14,084 nucleotides of DNA, taken from Naegleria gruberi (lineage: Eukaryota). This document shows positions 206 through 14,084 of this stretch, one piece after another. The notes below the pieces were generated by a model. That model had not been told where the DNA came from. It did no database searches and saw only the letters and a list, made by a program, of their open reading frames with translations. Made by a program: the position numbers and the translations under genes. Every line of letters starts with the position of its first letter. Within the stretch, counting starts at the first letter, position 1. Location: assembly GCA_000004985.1 (NCBI GenBank), contig GG738977.1; one strand, written 5' to 3'.

Positions 206-856
206 TGAATTGGTTTTCATTCTTTTTTCTTTTAATGCTCTAAAGACTAAGGAAAGATGTTGAAAGAAGTTTATCCTCCCTATTTAAAGTGATACAATAA
301 TCCAGTTTTTAAACCTCCCTTTCAGATAGTTTCGTATATTGCATCCATGAAGAGAAAGTTGATAAATACTTCGCATAAGAGATGTTAACCACAGTTTTTT
401 AACGAATACCTGTTCGACTTGTATAGAATTCAAAAACACCAAAAATTTTTAAATTCTTTTTATTCGAATAAACAAACTTCATGAATCTTTCTACAAAAAT
501 GGACAAATTTAAGAAGAGACTGAATATAGAACACAACTCAATGCAGATGAGATGAGGATTTTGTCATACAATTCAAGAACCATTGGCCATATACTCTGAT
601 ACTGTCAAACAGAGAACATGTCAACTGTATTGAAAAAGTTTTCTCAGTTTTTTATTGGTCAACTGTTATCTGGCTACTCTCTCCAACAAACGGCTCCATG
701 AGAGATGTGTTAAGTTCAGGAGAAGACTTACGCTATCTGTCTCCACATTATTCGAAATGAAATTAATTGCCATTGATAATGTTATCAGAATGCTGTTAAT
801 CCTCACCACCCTAACTTTACAAAATATTCTTTACAATCAAATAATTTTAAAAAAAA
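206..856. promoter_or_regulatory. divergent intergenic region between the minus-strand ATG at 205 and the plus-strand ATG at 857 (putative bidirectional promoter)
   Basis: This 651-bp non-coding stretch separates two divergently oriented ORF starts. It is A/T-rich and contains a TATTTAAA-like motif near 281-290. No specific elements were verified. Confidence 0.3.
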
Positions 857-1537
857 ATGTCTGTAAAGGTTGAGCTGATAGATTTTCTTCCGTCCCAATT
901 TACTTCCACTGATGATGATCATCACGATAATAATAATTTAATTAACCTCCTAAAATATAAAATTAATATCATCCCCACCAAACGATACTCTCTCGAATTT
1001 TCATCACTGAATGTTAGTGGTTATTATTCTGCATGGCATGTTGGTCCGAATTGTTTTGATATTGTTCTTTCCAATGATTATTATAGATTTATTGTAACGA
1101 ATGGTTCGGCACTGAGTGTTTTTCCGAGAGCAGAGACAGCTGAAGAGTATGAAAACAAGTTAATTGGAAGGGAGGCCTTGTTTGAAGTTGTGTTTGAGGA
1201 AATTACTTGTTTTAATTGTTTGAAATTGATTAAGGAGAAGGATGAGGAATATATTTATGCATCTACTGATCCATATGTTGTAAAGATTAAGGTTTCTGAT
1301 ATAATGAGGAAGAATCCACTTCTTGTTTGGAAATCTAAAGAAACTTACTATAATATCTGGGGATTGGATGTTATGGGATCCCAACTCTATGTTGTGGATT
1401 ATGAAAAATCAGTTATGATATTAGATCGTGAACATGGAGATCATTTACAATATTTAGATGATGATATTGGGAAAATTGAGGGTGGTGGTTTTGGTATTCA
1501 TTGCTTTTCTGAGAATGAAATATTAATGAGTCATAAT
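857..1537 (+). CDS. hypothetical protein, 5' part (ORF runs into the N gap)
   Basis: The ATG at 857-859 follows an A-run (aaaaaaaaATGtct), which is the recurring start context in this window. From there 226 stop-free codons reach the gap edge at 1537. The protein (…NIWGLDVMGSQLYVVDYEKSVMILDREHGDHLQYLDD…GGGFGIHCFSENEILMSHN) looks vaguely like beta-propeller repeats but I do not recognise it. Confidence 0.55.
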
Positions 1538-4500
1538 NNNNNNNNNNNNNNNNNNNNNNNNNNNNNNNNNNNNNNNNNNNNNNNNNNNNNNNNNNNNNNN
1601 NNNNNNNNNNNNNNNNNNNNNNNNNNNNNNNNNNNNNNNNNNNNNNNNNNNNNNNNNNNNNNNNNNNNNNNNNNNNNNNNNNNNNNNNNNNNNNNNNNNN
1701 NNNNNNNNNNNNNNNNNNNNNNNNNNNNNNNNNNNNNNNNNNNNNNNNNNNNNNNNNNNNNNNNNNNNNNNNNNNNNNNNNNNNNNNNNNNNNNNNNNNN
1801 NNNNNNNNNNNNNNNNNNNNNNNNNNNNNNNNNNNNNNNNNNNNNNNNNNNNNNNNNNNNNNNNNNNNNNNNNNNNNNNNNNNNNNNNNNNNNNNNNNNN
1901 NNNNNNNNNNNNNNNNNNNNNNNNNNNNNNNNNNNNNNNNNNNNNNNNNNNNNNNNNNNNNNNNNNNNNNNNNNNNNNNNNNNNNNNNNNNNNNNNNNNN
2001 NNNNNNNNNNNNNNNNNNNNNNNNNNNNNNNNNNNNNNNNNNNNNNNNNNNNNNNNNNNNNNNNNNNNNNNNNNNNNNNNNNNNNNNNNNNNNNNNNNNN
2101 NNNNNNNNNNNNNNNNNNNNNNNNNNNNNNNNNNNNNNNNNNNNNNNNNNNNNNNNNNNNNNNNNNNNNNNNNNNNNNNNNNNNNNNNNNNNNNNNNNNN
2201 NNNNNNNNNNNNNNNNNNNNNNNNNNNNNNNNNNNNNNNNNNNNNNNNNNNNNNNNNNNNNNNNNNNNNNNNNNNNNNNNNNNNNNNNNNNNNNNNNNNN
2301 NNNNNNNNNNNNNNNNNNNNNNNNNNNNNNNNNNNNNNNNNNNNNNNNNNNNNNNNNNNNNNNNNNNNNNNNNNNNNNNNNNNNNNNNNNNNNNNNNNNN
2401 NNNNNNNNNNNNNNNNNNNNNNNNNNNNNNNNNNNNNNNNNNNNNNNNNNNNNNNNNNNNNNNNNNNNNNNNNNNNNNNNNNNNNNNNNNNNNNNNNNNN
2501 NNNNNNNNNNNNNNNNNNNNNNNNNNNNNNNNNNNNNNNNNNNNNNNNNNNNNNNNNNNNNNNNNNNNNNNNNNNNNNNNNNNNNNNNNNNNNNNNNNNN
2601 NNNNNNNNNNNNNNNNNNNNNNNNNNNNNNNNNNNNNNNNNNNNNNNNNNNNNNNNNNNNNNNNNNNNNNNNNNNNNNNNNNNNNNNNNNNNNNNNNNNN
2701 NNNNNNNNNNNNNNNNNNNNNNNNNNNNNNNNNNNNNNNNNNNNNNNNNNNNNNNNNNNNNNNNNNNNNNNNNNNNNNNNNNNNNNNNNNNNNNNNNNNN
2801 NNNNNNNNNNNNNNNNNNNNNNNNNNNNNNNNNNNNNNNNNNNNNNNNNNNNNNNNNNNNNNNNNNNNNNNNNNNNNNNNNNNNNNNNNNNNNNNNNNNN
2901 NNNNNNNNNNNNNNNNNNNNNNNNNNNNNNNNNNNNNNNNNNNNNNNNNNNNNNNNNNNNNNNNNNNNNNNNNNNNNNNNNNNNNNNNNNNNNNNNNNNN
3001 NNNNNNNNNNNNNNNNNNNNNNNNNNNNNNNNNNNNNNNNNNNNNNNNNNNNNNNNNNNNNNNNNNNNNNNNNNNNNNNNNNNNNNNNNNNNNNNNNNNN
3101 NNNNNNNNNNNNNNNNNNNNNNNNNNNNNNNNNNNNNNNNNNNNNNNNNNNNNNNNNNNNNNNNNNNNNNNNNNNNNNNNNNNNNNNNNNNNNNNNNNNN
3201 NNNNNNNNNNNNNNNNNNNNNNNNNNNNNNNNNNNNNNNNNNNNNNNNNNNNNNNNNNNNNNNNNNNNNNNNNNNNNNNNNNNNNNNNNNNNNNNNNNNN
3301 NNNNNNNNNNNNNNNNNNNNNNNNNNNNNNNNNNNNNNNNNNNNNNNNNNNNNNNNNNNNNNNNNNNNNNNNNNNNNNNNNNNNNNNNNNNNNNNNNNNN
3401 NNNNNNNNNNNNNNNNNNNNNNNNNNNNNNNNNNNNNNNNNNNNNNNNNNNNNNNNNNNNNNNNNNNNNNNNNNNNNNNNNNNNNNNNNNNNNNNNNNNN
3501 NNNNNNNNNNNNNNNNNNNNNNNNNNNNNNNNNNNNNNNNNNNNNNNNNNNNNNNNNNNNNNNNNNNNNNNNNNNNNNNNNNNNNNNNNNNNNNNNNNNN
3601 NNNNNNNNNNNNNNNNNNNNNNNNNNNNNNNNNNNNNNNNNNNNNNNNNNNNNNNNNNNNNNNNNNNNNNNNNNNNNNNNNNNNNNNNNNNNNNNNNNNN
3701 NNNNNNNNNNNNNNNNNNNNNNNNNNNNNNNNNNNNNNNNNNNNNNNNNNNNNNNNNNNNNNNNNNNNNNNNNNNNNNNNNNNNNNNNNNNNNNNNNNNN
3801 NNNNNNNNNNNNNNNNNNNNNNNNNNNNNNNNNNNNNNNNNNNNNNNNNNNNNNNNNNNNNNNNNNNNNNNNNNNNNNNNNNNNNNNNNNNNNNNNNNNN
3901 NNNNNNNNNNNNNNNNNNNNNNNNNNNNNNNNNNNNNNNNNNNNNNNNNNNNNNNNNNNNNNNNNNNNNNNNNNNNNNNNNNNNNNNNNNNNNNNNNNNN
4001 NNNNNNNNNNNNNNNNNNNNNNNNNNNNNNNNNNNNNNNNNNNNNNNNNNNNNNNNNNNNNNNNNNNNNNNNNNNNNNNNNNNNNNNNNNNNNNNNNNNN
4101 NNNNNNNNNNNNNNNNNNNNNNNNNNNNNNNNNNNNNNNNNNNNNNNNNNNNNNNNNNNNNNNNNNNNNNNNNNNNNNNNNNNNNNNNNNNNNNNNNNNN
4201 NNNNNNNNNNNNNNNNNNNNNNNNNNNNNNNNNNNNNNNNNNNNNNNNNNNNNNNNNNNNNNNNNNNNNNNNNNNNNNNNNNNNNNNNNNNNNNNNNNNN
4301 NNNNNNNNNNNNNNNNNNNNNNNNNNNNNNNNNNNNNNNNNNNNNNNNNNNNNNNNNNNNNNNNNNNNNNNNNNNNNNNNNNNNNNNNNNNNNNNNNNNN
4401 NNNNNNNNNNNNNNNNNNNNNNNNNNNNNNNNNNNNNNNNNNNNNNNNNNNNNNNNNNNNNNNNNNNNNNNNNNNNNNNNNNNNNNNNNNNNNNNNNNNN

Positions 4501-6838: not shown

Positions 6839-7762
6839 TCAGTACACTTCAAGATCAATTAAATATTTCAGTTCAGTACAGATATATTCCTTGCCTATTT
6901 TGCCAATGTTATTATTCTTAATATTGAGCTGTGTTAATTGTTTCATTTCACAAATGTATTTAGCTCCTGCTTCACTTATTTCAACACCTGAAATACTTAA
7001 TCTAGTCAATTGATTCAATTTCTTAATATGTTTAGCTCCTTCATCACCAATTACATTCTCACCAATGTTAAGATCAGTTAATTGTTTCATTTCGCTAATG
7101 TATTTAACCCCCTCAACTCTGACATTGTTATAACTAATAGAAAGCTTGGTTAAATGCTTCAATTGACTAATGTATTTGGCACCTTCAACACCAATGTAAT
7201 TGTTTCCAATTTTGAGATTTTTCAATTGTTTCAATTCACTAATGTGTTTTGCACCCTCGTCTCCAATATTATTAAAACAAATATCTAGGTTTGTCAATTG
7301 TTTCAATTGACTAATGTATTTGGCTCCTTCCACTCCAACAAAATTACCACTCACTCCAAGAAAAGTTAATTGTTTCAATTGACTGATGTGTTTAGCCCCT
7401 TCAACACCAATATCATTAAAACAAGCTCGAAGATGTGATAAACGTTTCATCAGACCAAGTATTTGATAATCAAATTCGACAGTTCCAAATCTCACCACCA
7501 AAGTTGCAATATTTTGTAAAAATCGACCTTTCAAATTGTTACTATAACATCGAAAACAAAGTCTTGATCTTTCCAATATGACATTCAACCACTGTTTCGA
7601 AACTAATGCACAATTCAATACAATGAATTTAAAATCATCATAGAAGGATAAAATTTCACCCAGAATATCATCATTGAAAACTTCATGAGTGAGTTTCGTC
7701 TTTTTTGTTTCAGATCCAACATTTGCTTCATCAACAAGAGTTTCAATTGTTCGTTTTATCAT
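6839..7762 (-). CDS. F-box domain protein with 8 tandem RNI-like leucine-rich repeats
   Basis: The track ORF 6839..7789 begins at a TTG. The first in-frame ATG is at 7762..7760, in the context aaaaaaATGata. The N-terminus has an F-box-like motif, DDILGEILSFYDDFKFIVLNCALVSKQW (compare the consensus LPxEILxxIFSYLxxxDLxxxxLVCKRW). Eight 24-aa units of the form LxxLxxLxIxxNxIGxEGAKxISxLKQ follow, which is the ribonuclease-inhibitor type of LRR. The stop codon TGA lies at 6841..6839. Confidence 0.75.
   Translation of the reverse strand: MIKRTIETLVDEANVGSETKKTKLTHEVFNDDILGEILSFYDDFKFIVLNCALVSKQWLNVILERSRLCFRCYSNNLKGRFLQNIATLVVRFGTVEFDYQILGLMKRLSHLRACFNDIGVEGAKHISQLKQLTFLGVSGNFVGVEGAKYISQLKQLTNLDICFNNIGDEGAKHISELKQLKNLKIGNNYIGVEGAKYISQLKHLTKLSISYNNVRVEGVKYISEMKQLTDLNIGENVIGDEGAKHIKKLNQLTRLSISGVEISEAGAKYICEMKQLTQLNIKNNNIGKIGKEYICTELKYLIDLEVY
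6865..7441 (-). repeat. 72-bp periodic tandem repeat block within the coding sequence (8 LRR units)
   Basis: The DNA-level periodicity is visible as recurring caattgtttcaattgactaatgtatttggc...cc-ttc-acaccaat blocks. Each block matches one 24-aa LRR unit of the F-box/LRR protein. Confidence 0.75.
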
Positions 7763-7832
7763 TTTTTTAAAAAGTTTCAAATCATTCAAATGTCCAGATT
7801 TGGATTTATATTTTAAATGGCTTTACAAAACG

Positions 7833-10328: not shown

Positions 10329-10609
10329 AACACCAATATTAAATATACGAGAAATCCTTCCTGCTGCTCTTTAATAAAACATAGCCATAATTTTTCTTGA
10401 CCATATGTGAGTTGAATACTTGCTCTATATCTTGATTTTGCAATTGTAAACCATTGCTTGGAAATTAGGCAACAATTCAATAAAACATCTTTCCAAGCTA
10501 GCCATTGCATAATTTCTTCACAAATATCATCGGGGAATAAGTTATCCTACTCCTTTCCTTCCATCATGATTGAATTACGATCAAATTCTTCTCTCATTCG
10601 CTTCTTCAT
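10329..10609 (-). CDS. F-box domain protein, paralog of the 6839..7762 gene; N-terminal 93 codons up to the gap, with one in-frame TAG (possible pseudogene or sequencing error)
   Basis: The ATG is at 10609..10607, in the context aaaaaaaATGaag. It reads MKKRMREEFDRNSIMMEGKE, then TAG at 10549..10547, then continues in the same frame as DNLFPDDICEEIMQWLAWKDVLLNCCLISKQWFTIAKS... The F-box motif spans the stop and the N-terminus (M-K/I-KR...) matches the neighbouring gene, so both sides belong to one reading frame. The track ORF 7823..10510 begins at the internal ATG of ...EEIMQW. The 3' part of the gene is hidden in the gap. Confidence 0.55.
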
Positions 10610-10739
10610 TTTTTTTAAATAAAAATTAATAAAAATAGATAGTATTGTTTAAAATAAGTGAAATATTATAGATAAATTATTATTTATTATTGTAAAATTA
10701 ACTATTTCAAAATAAACAAGAAATAAGGTGTTAGATTGT

Positions 10740-10743
10740 AAAA
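10740..10743 (-). terminator. Pol III T-run (TTTT) about 7 nt downstream of the tRNA-Lys 3' end
   Basis: After the tRNA 3' end the minus strand reads ATTCTATTTTACAATC. Four Ts is the minimal Pol III terminator. Confidence 0.45.
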
Positions 10744-10749
10744 TAGAAT

Positions 10750-10822
10750 CGCCCACCGTGGGGGTCGAACCCACGACCACAAGGTTAAGAGCCTTGCGCT
10801 CTACCGACTGAGCTAGACGGGC
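10750..10822 (-). tRNA. tRNA-Lys (anticodon CTT)
   Basis: The minus strand reads GCCCGTCTAGCTCAGTCGGTAGAGCGCAAGGCTCTTAACCTTGTGGTCGTGGGTTCGAACCCCCACGGTGGGCG (73 nt). It has a 7-bp acceptor stem with two G-U pairs, a GCTC/GAGC D stem, a CAAGG/CCTTG anticodon stem with loop CTCTTAA, a GTGGG/CCCAC T stem with a TTCGAAC loop, and discriminator G. A box (TAGCTCAGTCGG) and B box (GGTTCGAACCC) are present. It is nearly identical to eukaryotic tRNA-Lys(CUU). Confidence 0.9.
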
Positions 10823-10898
10823 TACATTGATTAACAAAACGTTTCCTTAATAACGATTTCTATGGTAAAATTCAAGTTTACTAATTGATTAACAAATT

Positions 10899-11284
10899 TC
10901 AATGTTCTGCAATTCTACAATAATCAGATTTTGATACATCAACTGCAATTCCTATTTTGTTGAATTCCTCTTCAATTTGTTGAATCACGATATCCCTATT
11001 CGGATTATTTTCAAGTTGAATATTATTATATCTCAAATCAACAAATTCTAACAATGTGAATTCTTTTCTCTGTAATTGGATTTGCTCTGCAATAAATAGA
11101 GCATCATTTTCTGTTATTGAACCTGATAATGATAAATCCAATACTCGAACTCTTTTTGCAATATTTGATTTCATAATAAGTGGTAAGAGTTGCGGAATAT
11201 TATAAGTATTTCTCAGACCAAAATATTCTGATGTTGGATACTTTCCATTCTCTGATTCTGAAAGCAGTTCTGTTAAATTTTTTT
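10899..11284 (-). CDS. terminal exon of a spliced gene; LRR-like C-terminal region (…IPQLLPLIMKSNIAKRVRVLDLSLSGSITENDALFIAEQIQLQRKEFTLLEFVDLRYNNIQ…AEH*)
   Basis: The track ORF 10899..11174 is open upstream in the same frame to a TAA at roughly 11307..11305. Three in-phase CAG acceptors lie upstream (exon start at 11284, 11269 or 11257). The candidate at 11257 has a TTTAAC branch-like motif 12 nt upstream. The stop is TGA at 10901..10899. Exon start is uncertain by about 30 nt. Confidence 0.55.
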
Positions 11285-11472
11285 CTGTGACAGGTCGATC
11301 ATTTTACTTCTTATTTGACAGGGTGACCCAGCTAGATAGAGAAATTTAAGATTTTTGAAATATTTTAGTATTGAAATAGAAGTATAACAGGAATTTCGTA
11401 CATAATCATTGGTTGACTTGGTATTTTCTACATAAAATTTTTTCAAACTTGAAAGAAGAAGAATAAACTAAC
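11285..11472 (-). other. putative intron (GTTAGT...CAG), 188-215 nt depending on acceptor choice
   Basis: The donor GTTAGT at 11472..11467 sits exactly where the upstream ORF hits TAG (the TAG overlaps the donor). Exon phase is 1 and matches the phase of the downstream open frame, so splicing joins ...ISMRG to E(K/L)... without a frameshift. Confidence 0.45.
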
Positions 11473-11731
11473 CTCGCATGGAAATAATATTATCCAACTC
11501 AATTGGTTCGTAAGCTTCCTGTTGTTCTATTATATAATTATTAAACGATTCATGAAAGTAATTAGAACTTGGATAGCTCAACGATAATTCTTCAAAAGTT
11601 TTCAATTTTTCAATAATGTCCTGTGTTTCCTTGACCAATTCAACTGCTGGTCTCATTTTCCCATCTCCTATTTGTGCACTTTTCAATTCATTTTTAAAGA
11701 ATTTTAATATATCCAATCTGTCTTTGATAAT
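11473..11731 (-). CDS. internal exon of the same spliced gene (…KIIKDRLDILKFFKNELKSAQIGDGKMRPAVELVKETQDIIEKLKTFEELSLSYPSSNYFHESFNNYIIEQQEAYEPIELDNIISMR-G)
   Basis: The frame is open from the TAA at 11782..11780 down to the donor at 11473. A candidate acceptor aaaaag|ATT at 11732 is preceded by a pyrimidine-rich tract. The 5' boundary is uncertain. Confidence 0.4.
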
Positions 11732-11951
11732 CTTTTTGATAATATTCAACAGTAACAAATAATATAGGAGGAGAGATTTTTAAATGAAATGTTTGTAGGA
11801 GAGAGGAGAGCAAAATCGGACAATTCTCGCTCCAATCATCACCATCAAACGTATCATTGTGCTGATGATAGTGATTATTCATTTTTTTTGATTTTTGTAA
11901 ATTAATAATCATATCCTTATTGCAATGGTAGAATAAGGTTTGACTCATCAC
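11694..11951 (-). CDS. possible 5' exon or ORF (MMSQTLFYHCNKDMIINLQKSKKMNNHYHQHNDTFDGDDWSENCPILLSSLLQ…), relationship to the downstream exons unresolved
   Basis: This is an 85-codon ORF starting at the ATGATG at 11951. It overlaps the internal exon by about 38 nt in a different frame. I could not find a convincing donor, so whether it is exon 1 of the same gene is unknown. Confidence 0.25.
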   Translation of the reverse strand: MMSQTLFYHCNKDMIINLQKSKKMNNHYHQHNDTFDGDDWSENCPILLSSLLQTFHLKISPPILFVTVEYYQKDYQRQIGYIKIL

Positions 11952-12012
11952 TTGGTTTTGTTCACTGTGAATATGGAATTGGGCTGATATTACACATTTT
12001 GAGGTAATGAAT

Positions 12013-12130
12013 GGCTACGGCCATATAATGATGAATGCACCTCATCCCGTCCGATTTGAGAAGTTAAGCATCGTCGAGCCACATCAGTACTGAGGTTGGG
12101 ACAACTTGGGAACCTGTGGTGCTGTAGTCT
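12013..12130 (+). rRNA. 5S ribosomal RNA gene
   Basis: The plus strand reads GGCTACGGCCATATAATGATGAATGCACCTCATCCCGTCCGATTTGAGAAGTTAAGCATCGTCGAGCCACATCAGTACTGAGGTTGGGACAACTTGGGAACCTGTGGTGCTGTAGTCT. It matches the eukaryotic 5S consensus blocks (GGCCATA, CCCGTCCGAT..GAAGTTAAGC, AGTACT, GGGAA..GGTGCTGTAG) and is collinear with S. cerevisiae 5S. Helix I pairs its 5' and 3' ends. Length is about 118 nt, with ends uncertain by about 2 nt. Confidence 0.85.
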
Positions 12131-12136
12131 TTTTTT
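12130..12136 (+). terminator. Pol III terminator (T7) at the 5S 3' end
   Basis: A ttttttt run lies immediately after ...GCTGTAGTC. Confidence 0.65.
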
Positions 12137-12152
12137 CATTTCAAAATTTGTT

Positions 12153-12195
12153 GCAGATTAACAGTCTGACGCTCTACCGACTGAGCTAGACGGGC
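12153..12195 (-). pseudogene. tRNA-Lys(UUU)-like 5' fragment (tRNA positions 1-43); anticodon loop reads GTT; no T arm or 3' acceptor strand
   Basis: The minus strand reads GCCCGTCTAGCTCAGTCGGTAGAGCGTCAGACTGTTAATCTGC. Positions 1-26 are identical to the intact tRNA-Lys at 10750..10822. The anticodon arm TCAGA-CTGTTAA-TCTG(C) resembles tRNA-Lys(UUU) (TCAGA-CTTTTAA-TCTGA) with a T-to-G change. Downstream sequence (AACAAATTTTGAAATGAAAAAAA) lacks any TTCGA T-loop and runs into the antisense tail of the 5S gene. Confidence 0.6.
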
Positions 12196-12209
12196 TACAT
12201 TTGATGACC

Positions 12210-12920
12210 TTAATTGTCCCTAATAATAGCTTGTTGGAAGAGTTTTTCTCTATCATAGTGAACTGAGGAAACATCCATAATTTCCTTGCTCTTTTCCAAA
12301 AGGGAAGAAGCTGTTGTAGTACGGCAAATGTAAAGAAGTTTTTTACAAAGGTCCAAATCATAGATAATACATCTTTCTGGATACATCAATTTCACACATT
12401 GGACAACCATATTTTCATAAGCATCCAAATCAGAGTCTAATTTAGAAATAGATTGAATGGTGTATGAGGAGAGTCTGAGCATTAAAAGTTTGTCTTGATT
12501 ACTTTGAGTTGATTCATATTCCTTCAATTTAGATTCAATTGCCGATTCAATTGATGAAATATCCTTCTTGTATTTCTTTGTTGATTCATTGAGAACTTGT
12601 TTGGCAACCTTGCAATATTCTCTGTTTACCAAAACAATATTAATGAGAACCTTCATCAACTTGGTATATTCAAGAGAGTATTCACTCTTCATCATTTTCA
12701 TATTTTCGCAATGTACTTTGTACAAGTTGAAGGCAAATTCGATATCATCATATGTAATTGGCTTTTCCTAGTCGCTTTCTTGCCACATGGTATGCAATTT
12801 CTTAGCAACTTGATAAACACGTAAATCTTCTTGACGATATTTGAGGAGAGGAGTATAAGATTCAGCAGCTCCCTGTTCGACGTGGTGAAGTGCTTGACGG
12901 ATTTTTGATTGTGTTCTCAT
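12210..12920 (-). CDS. hypothetical protein (236 codons) interrupted by one in-frame TAG
   Basis: The ATG is at 12920..12918. It reads MRTQSKIRQALHHVEQGAAESYTPLLKYRQEDLRVYQVAKKLHTMWQESD, then TAG at 12770..12768, then continues in the same frame as EKPITYDDIEFAFNLYKVHCENMKMMKSEYSLEYTKLMK…QQAIIRDN and ends with TAA at 12212..12210. The track ORF 12210..12725 is the part after the TAG and begins at a TTG. No family was recognised. Confidence 0.55.
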
Positions 12921-13014
12921 ATCACCTATTAGCTTCGAACTGTGAACTCAAAGTTCATACTATTATTTAAACTTTTCAAATTATATCATTTATTTTCAAA
13001 AAAACAAAGAAACA
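12921..13014. promoter_or_regulatory. 94-bp divergent intergenic region between the minus ATG at 12920 and the plus ATG at 13015 (putative bidirectional promoter)
   Basis: The region is A/T-rich and the plus-strand start sits in the context aaacaaagaaacaATG. No elements were verified. Confidence 0.3.
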
Positions 13015-13680
13015 ATGATCTCTTCATCCACCTCTAAGCAACCACATCTTGAAACCATTGATCCAAACAACATTTGGGTTATCAAGAATTTATTCTCCAC
13101 AGAAGAATGTTCGAAACTTTTGAAAGAAAGTGAAGAAATTGGTTATGGAGAAGCCCCAATTTCAACAGGTCCTACTTCATCTACCATTATGAAAGATGTT
13201 AGAAATAACTCTCGTGCCATGATTGATAAAAAGCAATATTCTGACATGCTTTACAAAAAATTAGAGAAATACCTGCCACAGAATGTGTCATCACTCAAAG
13301 TAGGTCCACAAGATGGTTTTAAATTGTGTGGTCTCAATGAAAGAATTCGTTTCTACAAGTATGCAGCTGGAGAATATTTTGCTCCTCATTATGATGGTTG
13401 TTTTCAGAGACCAACTCTTAATGTGGAAATTAATGGAAAGAAAATGAAAGTTGTGGAAAGATCTTTCATTACAGTTCTCTTATATTTGAATGATGTGGAG
13501 AGTGGAGGTGAAACTAACTTTCTCAATTCGAGATGTGAAATAATTCATAGTGTGAAACCACAAGCAGGTCAAGTCTTGATGTTTGTTCATTCGAATTATC
13601 ATGAAGGAAGTGTGTTGAGTGATCCAAATGAATTTAAATATGTCATGAGAACAGACGTCATGTATCGTAAAGAAAAATAA
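13015..13680 (+). CDS. prolyl 4-hydroxylase-like 2-oxoglutarate/Fe(II)-dependent oxygenase (P4Hc-type), apparently soluble
   Basis: This is a 221-aa ORF from the ATG at 13015 to the TAA at 13678-13680. It has the P4H signature layout: an N-terminal IWVIKNLFSTEECSKLL (the P4H-typical ...nfLs.eEC..li...), an HxD iron site in RFYKYAAGEYFAPHYDG, TVLLYLNDVESGGETNF (the classic LYLNDVEEGGET block) and a distal His in GQVLMFVHSNYHEG. The N-terminus MISSSTSKQPHLETIDPNN is hydrophilic, with no signal peptide or transmembrane segment evident. Confidence 0.8.
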   Translation: MISSSTSKQPHLETIDPNNIWVIKNLFSTEECSKLLKESEEIGYGEAPISTGPTSSTIMKDVRNNSRAMIDKKQYSDMLYKKLEKYLPQNVSSLKVGPQDGFKLCGLNERIRFYKYAAGEYFAPHYDGCFQRPTLNVEINGKKMKVVERSFITVLLYLNDVESGGETNFLNSRCEIIHSVKPQAGQVLMFVHSNYHEGSVLSDPNEFKYVMRTDVMYRKEK

Positions 13681-13775
13681 ACCTCTCCTCAGGTAAATTA
13701 AGAATTGTTGATGATACCCTTATTTCATTAATTTGTAAAAGAAAAATGAAAAATTTTATTAAAAATTAGAAAAAA

Positions 13776-14084
13776 ATGCTCAAAGTTCTCACAGCACAAA
13801 AATCTTGCAAATTTTCATCATCAATTTCTTTCCCTTTTAACAAGAATGGAAGAATATTCAAAAATTCATCATCATCTGCATCAACAATTCGTCATAATTC
13901 CATCAATTACAAGTATGCCTCTCGGGATGGATTGTGTTCTCTTCCTGCTATCAAATCCGATAGAGAAATGACTTTGGTTTTGGACTTGGATGAATGTTTA
14001 ATTGCTAGTTCGGAGAGACCATTCCATAATTCGTTTCCTTGTTATCCAGAATGTCATGTCATGTTGAGACCGGATGGAAGAGTT
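13776..14084 (+). CDS. NIF/FCP1-like HAD phosphatase domain protein, 5' part (partial; runs off window end), with a presequence-like N-terminus
   Basis: The ATG at 13776 (aaaaaaATGctc) follows an in-frame TAG at 13767-13769. From it, 103 stop-free codons reach the window end. The sequence ...REMTLVLDLDECLIASSERPF... matches the DxDx(T/V) motif I of CTD small phosphatase, Dullard and TIM50-type domains (LVLDLDETLIHS). The first 60 or so residues are rich in S/K/R with almost no acidic residues, which resembles a mitochondrial targeting sequence. Confidence 0.5.
   Translation, partial: MLKVLTAQKSCKFSSSISFPFNKNGRIFKNSSSSASTIRHNSINYKYASRDGLCSLPAIKSDREMTLVLDLDECLIASSERPFHNSFPCYPECHVMLRPDGRV

Follow-up and report, generated by a model that had tools for sequence, protein, structure and literature searches.

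How does a 5S rRNA gene come to lie tail-to-tail with the 5' portion of a tRNA gene, when an intact tRNA gene with the same 5' half stands close by on the same piece of DNA? The question is raised by a complete small scaffold of the Naegleria gruberi NEG-M assembly (GG738977.1; 14,084 bp, analyzed in full and called the window here) that contains two large gaps. Runs of N at 1531..~6700 and ~7830..~10330 make up more than half of the scaffold, and the in-window searches reported below cover its 6,428 readable bases. An intact tRNA-Lys(CUU) gene and a truncated tRNA sequence, which we have termed the stump, lie on the minus strand, and the DNA between them includes a partial copy of a protein-coding gene and the 5S rRNA gene. 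We hold with good confidence that the stump is a dead tRNA gene (tDNA) relic within a patchwork that was put together at the DNA level, beside an ordinary 5S gene.

The intact gene (copy A; 10750..10822, minus strand) was called as tRNA-Lys(CUU) by ARAGORN and scores 66.4 bits over the full length of the Rfam tRNA model, and it is identical to its counterpart, the tRNA at 586..658 in L030, a sister locus from another strain that is described below. The stump (copy B; 12153..12195, minus strand) is 43 nt long and is separated from the T run of the 5S gene by 16 nt (12137..12152), just where the initial annotation had placed a tRNA fragment. Its positions 1–26 are those of copy A and, together with the 6-nt leader AATGTA, they form a direct repeat whose two copies, at 10797..10828 and 12170..12201 (both minus strand), are spaced 1,373 nt apart. 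When recomputed, the reported 32/32 identity of these copies, leader included, came out the same. Because only ~6e-11 exact pairs of 32-mers are expected in the readable bases at a per-base match probability of 0.283, this identity is not due to chance. From position 27 onward the stump follows a different sequence, as had also been noticed: positions 27–43 read TCAGA/CTGTTAA/TCTG(C), pair into a 4-bp stem around a canonical 7-nt loop, and constitute an anticodon arm of the Lys(UUU)/Asn(GUU) type with a GTT anticodon.

Past the anticodon arm, the tRNA character of the stump is lost, and there is no variable region, T arm, or 3' acceptor strand. When the Rfam tRNA model RF00005 is applied to 12111..12195 (minus strand), the score is 25 bits, below the gathering score of 29, with positions 1–44 aligned and the T arm skipped; the 3' acceptor strand that appears in this alignment is spurious, as it comes from inside the 5S gene. 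The A box and D arm and the anticodon stem-loop are present, and positions 1–43 align at maximum posterior probability. ARAGORN makes no tRNA call on the stump, and no B box (GGTTCRANNCC) is found near it or elsewhere in the readable window except in the intact gene. We also considered whether the missing 3' half of the tRNA might lie beyond the 5S gene or elsewhere, as would be expected had the 5S gene inserted into a tRNA gene or its intron, and rejected this candidate, as the B-box search and permissive Rfam scans were negative. Judged by its sequence features, the stump is most likely a non-functional relic of a tRNA-Lys-family gene.

The anticodon arm shows that the stump is not simply a worn copy of its neighbor. 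Stump and copy A differ at 0 of the 32 positions in the shared block and at 7 of the 17 positions in the arm (Fisher p = 2e-4), and the stem is preserved. A locally duplicated CTT gene that later decayed was rejected as an explanation, as the seven differences in the arm leave a proper stem-loop and the adjoining 32 nt are unchanged. The combined D arm and anticodon arm of the stump have exact matches in 19 metagenome loci (mostly bacterial tRNA-Asn(GTT), two Lys(TTT), and the rest Lys(CTT)), which argues that the arm belongs to a real tRNA species. The metagenome scan with the stump arms returned mostly bacterial tRNA-Asn genes and viral-like tRNA clusters and no Naegleria sequence, while the viral scan returned giant-virus and phage tRNAs alone. 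Additionally, among the tRNAs of six viral contigs the identical 26-nt 5' part is combined with CTT arms as well as TTT arms (side by side in one contig), which indicates that 26 of the 32 identical bases are commonly shared by Lys isoacceptors. The leader AATGTA also precedes the tRNA-Lys of L030, the one additional Naegleria tRNA-Lys in the comparison, which belongs to a sister locus and not to an unrelated gene.

For comparison, we used three short contigs (L029, L030, and L031) from an ENA assembly of an N. gruberi-like strain. L030 carries, in order, the end of the same leucine-rich repeat (LRR) gene that is found in the window, one tRNA-Lys(CTT), ~130 nt, and an oxygenase gene. In BLAST alignments, L030 197-664 matches window 10329-10828 with 91.8% identity including indels, being nearly identical in the coding part, and L030 700-1492 matches window 12927-13710 with 96% identity; colinearity of the window resumes at an L030 position just upstream of the L030 tRNA flank. 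Relative to L030, the window holds ~2.06 kb of extra DNA, which consists of a piece of a gene that we call gene X, 257 nt for which no match was found, the 5S gene, the stump, and a piece of another gene, P0122. Measured from repeat to repeat, the window has one extra period of 1,373 nt. The divergence from L030 is uneven, with one substitution and one indel in ~300 coding nt on the LRR-gene side, and ~4% divergence in coding sequence, and more upstream, on the oxygenase side, which suggests that the sequences on either side of the tRNA differ in history.

A three-way comparison of copy A, the stump, and the L030 tRNA reveals a recombinant pattern. In the leader and tRNA positions 1–26, all three pairs agree at 32/32 positions. 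In the anticodon arm (27–43), copy A matches L030 at 17/17 positions, and the stump matches each of them at only 10/17. In the upstream flank the affinities are reversed. In register from -31 to -7, the flank of the stump (-1..-29; 12196..12224, minus strand) matches that of L030 at 19/25 positions (P about 1e-6, or 5e-5 empirically; two of the positions fall in the adjoining gene piece), whereas the flank of copy A (-1..-31; 10823..10853, minus strand, with TTATTAAGG at -31..-23) matches L030 at 13/25, and the flanks of copy A and the stump match each other at 14/25 (P about 0.003). The gapped scores follow the same order, at 32 for stump and L030 (also the ungapped score of this pair), 16 for copy A and L030, and 20 for copy A and stump. 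Furthermore, the stump flank and L030 share a second ATTAAGG unit that copy A does not have, and when the P0122 piece and 3 nt of filler are removed from the window, the stump flank continues into the oxygenase upstream region exactly as in L030. By this sequence comparison, L030 looks as if the stump's flank had been joined to the body of the intact gene, changing over from one to the other within the 32-nt block that they share. We infer one exchange within the 32 nt because L030 makes this join and lacks the intervening DNA. The likeness of copy A to the stump reaches ~31 nt upstream of the tRNA, ending with TTATTARGG at -31..-23; beyond -31, the flank of copy A has no significant similarity to L030 or to the window from 12911 onward, and an apparent extension of its likeness to L030 past this point was rejected as not significant.

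These observations suggest the following account. The stump would go back to a gene of the Lys(UUU) type whose leader and first 26 nt were the same as those of the neighboring tRNA-Lys(CUU), so that the stump and the intact gene would form 32-nt direct repeats bracketing a 1,373-nt block made up of the partial gene copy, the 257 nt, and the 5S gene. A single homologous exchange within the shared tRNA 5' half would then separate the state of the window from that of L030. In one direction, foreign DNA may have been integrated, or captured by template copying, with both ends anchored on tRNA-Lys homology; in the other direction, the block may have been lost from the sister lineage by a pop-out or a single-strand-annealing deletion between the direct repeats. 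The 683-nt piece of P0122 would be a separate, clean insertion into the upstream flank of the stump, and the tail-to-tail position of the 5S gene would be a by-product of the rearrangement. It is possible that both tRNA genes were functional until a recent truncation, which would explain why the 32/32 identity sits beside a flank with six differences from L030; the 99.6% identity of the P0122 piece to its source is consistent with a recent truncation next door. The partner in the exchange is best taken to be a gene of the Lys family, because copy A keeps a matched acceptor stem and both parents needed the same leader and positions 1–26. As the partner was probably a Lys-family gene, we favor an origin of the stump arm in a Lys(UUU)-type gene followed by a T34G change over an Asn donor. 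To the account as specified we give slightly better than an even chance. It comes close to one of the origins first proposed for the fragment, a chimera of two Lys genes.

Recombination between short direct repeats can take the form of single-strand annealing or pop-out deletion, and its reverse is Campbell-type integration. The locus resembles such events in that identical 32-nt direct repeats surround a block that is present here and absent in L030, and in that the single copy in L030 is a hybrid of the two flanks. At 32 nt, the repeats approach the minimum length commonly given for recombination between direct repeats.

Several points weigh against the exchange account. It depends on a single sister locus, which comes from another strain and is the counterpart of a paralogue on a 304-kb scaffold and not of this scaffold, and the flank comparison covers 25-31 nt. 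The flank of the stump itself differs from L030 at 6/31 positions, and two ~10-nt indels with few substitutions are enough to align the flank of copy A to L030, indels being the main type of difference on the other side of the tRNA. The GTT anticodon requires either the additional T34G change or an Asn-type donor. Finally, a single 2,057-nt patchwork insertion at -32 fits almost as well. In this alternative, one mosaic (10854..12910) containing the gene X piece, the 5S gene, a 72-nt piece of another tRNA locus, and the P0122 piece entered 32 nt upstream of the resident tRNA-Lys, with no exchange in the tRNA, and the 32-nt identity reflects family-wide conservation of the Lys 5' half, its leader, and an upstream promoter motif. 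Both ends of the extra DNA indeed map to position -32 of L030, the remaining components are all arbitrarily truncated copies from elsewhere, and the two indels needed to align the copy A flank to L030 are of the kind by which this locus usually diverges. The sharing of a 26-nt 5' part by isoacceptors in other genomes points the same way, as do two tRNA-Phe copies on a related contig (discussed below) that likewise have their leader and upstream motifs in common. What the simple insertion leaves poorly explained is the flank, since the sequence beside the stump fits L030 much better than that of the supposed resident (19/25 against 13/25, score 32 against 16), and the second ATTAAGG unit common to the stump flank and L030 would have to be a coincidence. 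We regard it as unlikely, though far from negligible.

The two gene pieces near the stump have the look of copies from elsewhere. The P0122 piece (12225..12907, minus strand) is an internal segment of its gene, 99.6% identical to L029 613..1295, and sits cleanly inside the stump's upstream flank, with the 3 nt of filler at 12908..12910. The full-length relative, P0122, is a 369-aa protein encoded on a 530,355-bp scaffold and named 'methyl-accepting chemotaxis protein' in NCBI. The protein annotated on the window, P0121 (NAEGRDRAFT_76661; 163 aa, in the open reading frame (ORF) 12210..12725, minus strand), is a truncated version and is chimeric, as the flank upstream of the tRNA provides its last five codons and stop. 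Across the 5S gene from this piece, gene X is represented by a degenerate partial copy (10884..11755, minus strand) that is 98.7% and 93.8% identical to L031 and is annotated as the 184-aa protein P0125; a fuller copy of the gene is P0127, on a 695,587-bp scaffold. An internal deletion has removed from the window copy 139 nt that L031 has (308..446), and the window copy is truncated at the 5' end, without about the first 47 codons of P0127 (its 5' limit at ~11755 was set by protein comparison). Despite its annotation, P0125 is probably a pseudogene. Two annotated 'predicted proteins', P0121 and P0125, are accordingly truncated copies of genes that are sited elsewhere. We also note that a 13-nt direct repeat, ATTGATTAACAAA, occurs at 10826..10838 beside the tRNA-Lys leader and, 58 nt away, at 10884..10896 in the 3' region of gene X; this repeat may represent microhomology, or the junction may have received a short templated insertion. 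Between gene X and the 5S gene lie the 257 nt (11756..12012) that have no Rfam match at E <= 1 and no similarity to any comparison locus obtained.

A patchwork of this kind could conceivably be produced by the assembly, if the 3.7-kb contig were a chimera of reads from several loci joined at the repeated tRNA sequence. In keeping with such an artefact, the scaffold is only 14 kb long and interrupted by two large N gaps, three other scaffolds carry genes that match its pieces, and its variant proteins are not found in the ENA strain assembly. A false join at a repeat, however, yields one copy of the repeat, not two copies with four distinct flanks, and the junctions from the 5S gene through the stump to the P0122 piece fall within ~800 nt, our estimate of a single Sanger read. 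Additionally, a protein identical to P0121, whose C-terminus spans the junction of the P0122 piece with the flank, is annotated on a second scaffold (EFC35681.1). An assembly artefact is therefore improbable.

The 5S gene itself (12013..12130, plus strand) is apparently intact. It scores 90.6 bits with RF00001 (gathering score 38) over the full model (1-120), its helix I is paired with nine pairs, and just two non-standard pairs are flagged across the molecule in the Rfam alignment. The model score and the pairing of helix I both uphold the original 5S call, and the T7 run proposed as its RNA polymerase III (Pol III) terminator was read directly at 12130..12136, its first T being the last base of the 5S gene. 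It looks like an ordinary Pol III gene. As they stand, the 5S gene and the stump are not one inherited gene pair, because a full-length tRNA would overlap the 3' end of the 5S gene.

The initial annotation saw in the conserved 5' flank a sign of segmental or retro-duplication. The first part of this proposal stands, in that the events appear segmental or recombinational at the level of DNA, but the second does not. Pol III normally starts downstream of -31, and a retro-duplication is unsupported because the shared sequence extends upstream of the normal start. Retroposition was rejected for this reason, and also because the copy is truncated at the 3' end and shows neither an A-rich tail nor a target-site duplication. 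The same evidence bears on the wider idea that the 5S gene and half-tRNA move together, as a SINE-like (short interspersed element) unit or a dispersed 5S family, or that the stump is a retrocopy of a pre-tRNA. While the 6-nt common leader could be a transcribed leader, and N. gruberi is reported to have 924 tDNAs (PMC2888827), the likeness runs to -31, past any Pol III transcript, and the copy is cut at its 3' and not its 5' end and lacks a B box as well as the tail and duplication. The 5S gene and the stump lie on opposite strands, and no further copy of a 49-aa ORF antisense to the 5S gene turned up when the indexed assemblies were searched for exact matches, although this is a weak test. 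A mobile or retroposed unit is very improbable.

Some features could point to a functional element, be it a gene expressed as a 5' tRNA half, one half of a split tRNA, or an A box that acts on neighboring genes. These are the intact A box, a TATA-like motif at -30, a minus-strand T4 run 6 nt past position 43, and a tRNA part conserved at 32/32 positions next to a flank that differs from L030 at 6/31. The conservation, though, is also explained if the truncation was recent (the adjoining P0122 piece is 99.6% identical to its source), and the B box is missing. The predicted fold of the stump is no more stable than that of shuffled sequence (z = -0.06), the tRNA-likeness stops after the anticodon stem and not at a known split position, and there is no partner half in the readable window. 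We consider a functional element the least probable of all the explanations discussed here.

How does the locus compare with known arrangements in which tRNA sequence appears in parts or beside other genes? SINEs derived from tRNA have A and B boxes, a 3' tail, target-site duplications, and many copies. The stump resembles them in that a tRNA-related 5' part is followed by unrelated sequence, but it has no B box, 3' tail, or target-site duplication, and its likeness to copy A goes past the transcript to -31. In the split tRNA genes of Nanoarchaeum and related archaea, the 5' halves end at defined positions and are followed by sequence complementary to the leader of the 3' half. These also present a separate 5' tRNA portion, whereas the tRNA-likeness of the stump continues through the anticodon arm to position 42-43, with no 3' half to be found in the readable window. 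In trypanosomatids, companion tRNAs or tRNA-like sequences with divergent A and B boxes serve as promoters ~100 bp upstream of the small nuclear RNA or 7SL RNA gene that depends on them. The stump has no B box and lies downstream of the 5S gene in convergent orientation, and an Rfam scan finds no small-RNA model matches upstream of the stump. In the dicistronic units of Yarrowia, an intact tRNA is reportedly located upstream on the same strand and drives expression of the 5S gene, while the stump is truncated, has no B box, and follows the 5S gene tail-to-tail on the other strand.

The likeness to Yarrowia is one of neighborhood: scattered 5S genes and dicistronic tRNA-5S Pol III units, with the 5S genes physically joined to tRNA genes, have been described there (PMC2566860). 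In another discoban, Leishmania major, each of the eleven dispersed 5S genes adjoins tRNA genes (PMC2695483). The 5S gene of the window similarly lies within 1.2 kb of a tRNA-Lys, but the Leishmania clusters are made of intact Pol III genes and the nearest 5S partner here is a dead stump. There is also a parallel with tRNA relics and pseudogenes. In N. gruberi, 924 tDNAs have been reported and tDNA locations turn over rapidly (PMC2888827). The stump is like other relics in being a truncated, sub-threshold tRNA-like sequence beside other genes, and differs from them in that it can be placed in a specific rearrangement through a sister locus without the relic. The kind of structure is already known, as tDNA relics are common, and it shares just the proximity of 5S and tRNA sequence with the Leishmania and Yarrowia cases. 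Our literature searches found no description of 5S gene organization in Naegleria.

The locus is an ordinary genomic scar, neither a new kind of gene nor a mobile element, and on its own it matters little beyond providing a clean example of a tRNA-bounded rearrangement, with a sister locus that lacks the block, in a tDNA-rich protist. Should the pattern turn up repeatedly across the genome, it would be relevant to the movement of dispersed 5S and tRNA genes. A more speculative extension is that the large tRNA gene family of Naegleria supplies homology anchors for break repair or ectopic recombination, which would pick up and shuffle short segments from distant loci, including whole 5S genes. 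We think this quite unlikely; if it were true, tRNA anchors would give a mechanism for the dispersal of 5S genes beside tRNA genes in discoban genomes.

Three other scaffolds (304-kb, 530-kb, and 695-kb) carry near-identical counterparts of genes on the window. Downstream of the P0122 piece and its filler, the window carries the upstream region and coding sequence of a 2-oxoglutarate- and Fe(II)-dependent (2OG-Fe(II)) oxygenase gene, NAEGRDRAFT_54661 (12911..13680, plus strand), which is 96% identical to and colinear with L030 700..1492. The encoded protein is a 221-aa product of the ORF 13015..13680, and its relative on the 304-kb scaffold, P0001, is 98% identical. Farther downstream, at 13804..13882 (minus strand), past the oxygenase gene, lies a weak match to the C/D-box small nucleolar RNA family snoZ159 (23.8 bits, gathering score 39; E = 0.33) that is probably due to chance. 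Between the two gaps, the ORF 6839..7789 (minus strand) contains six tandem 72-nt (24-residue) units at 6934..7489, 62-74% identical to a reference copy, that encode leucine-rich repeats of the ...IGxEGAKxISxLKQLTxL... type, and a second gene of similar LRR type runs from 10510 (minus strand) into the N gap.

The N. fowleri locus with an oxygenase homologue contains no tRNA or 5S gene and has different called neighbors, and two further environmental contigs contain no RNA genes. An environmental Naegleria-like contig in ENA (k141_91841, L003) carries an oxygenase homologue (57% identity) between two copies of tRNA-Phe, at 1142..1214 and 2051..2111. One is an intact tRNA-Phe(GAA), and the other, at 61 nt, lacks 12 nt of the T arm; the two have the leader TTAACAAG, an upstream AGTAATC motif, and a trailer with a T run in common. 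This pair makes L003 a second Naegleria-like contig in which an oxygenase homologue is flanked by tRNA copies, one of them damaged.

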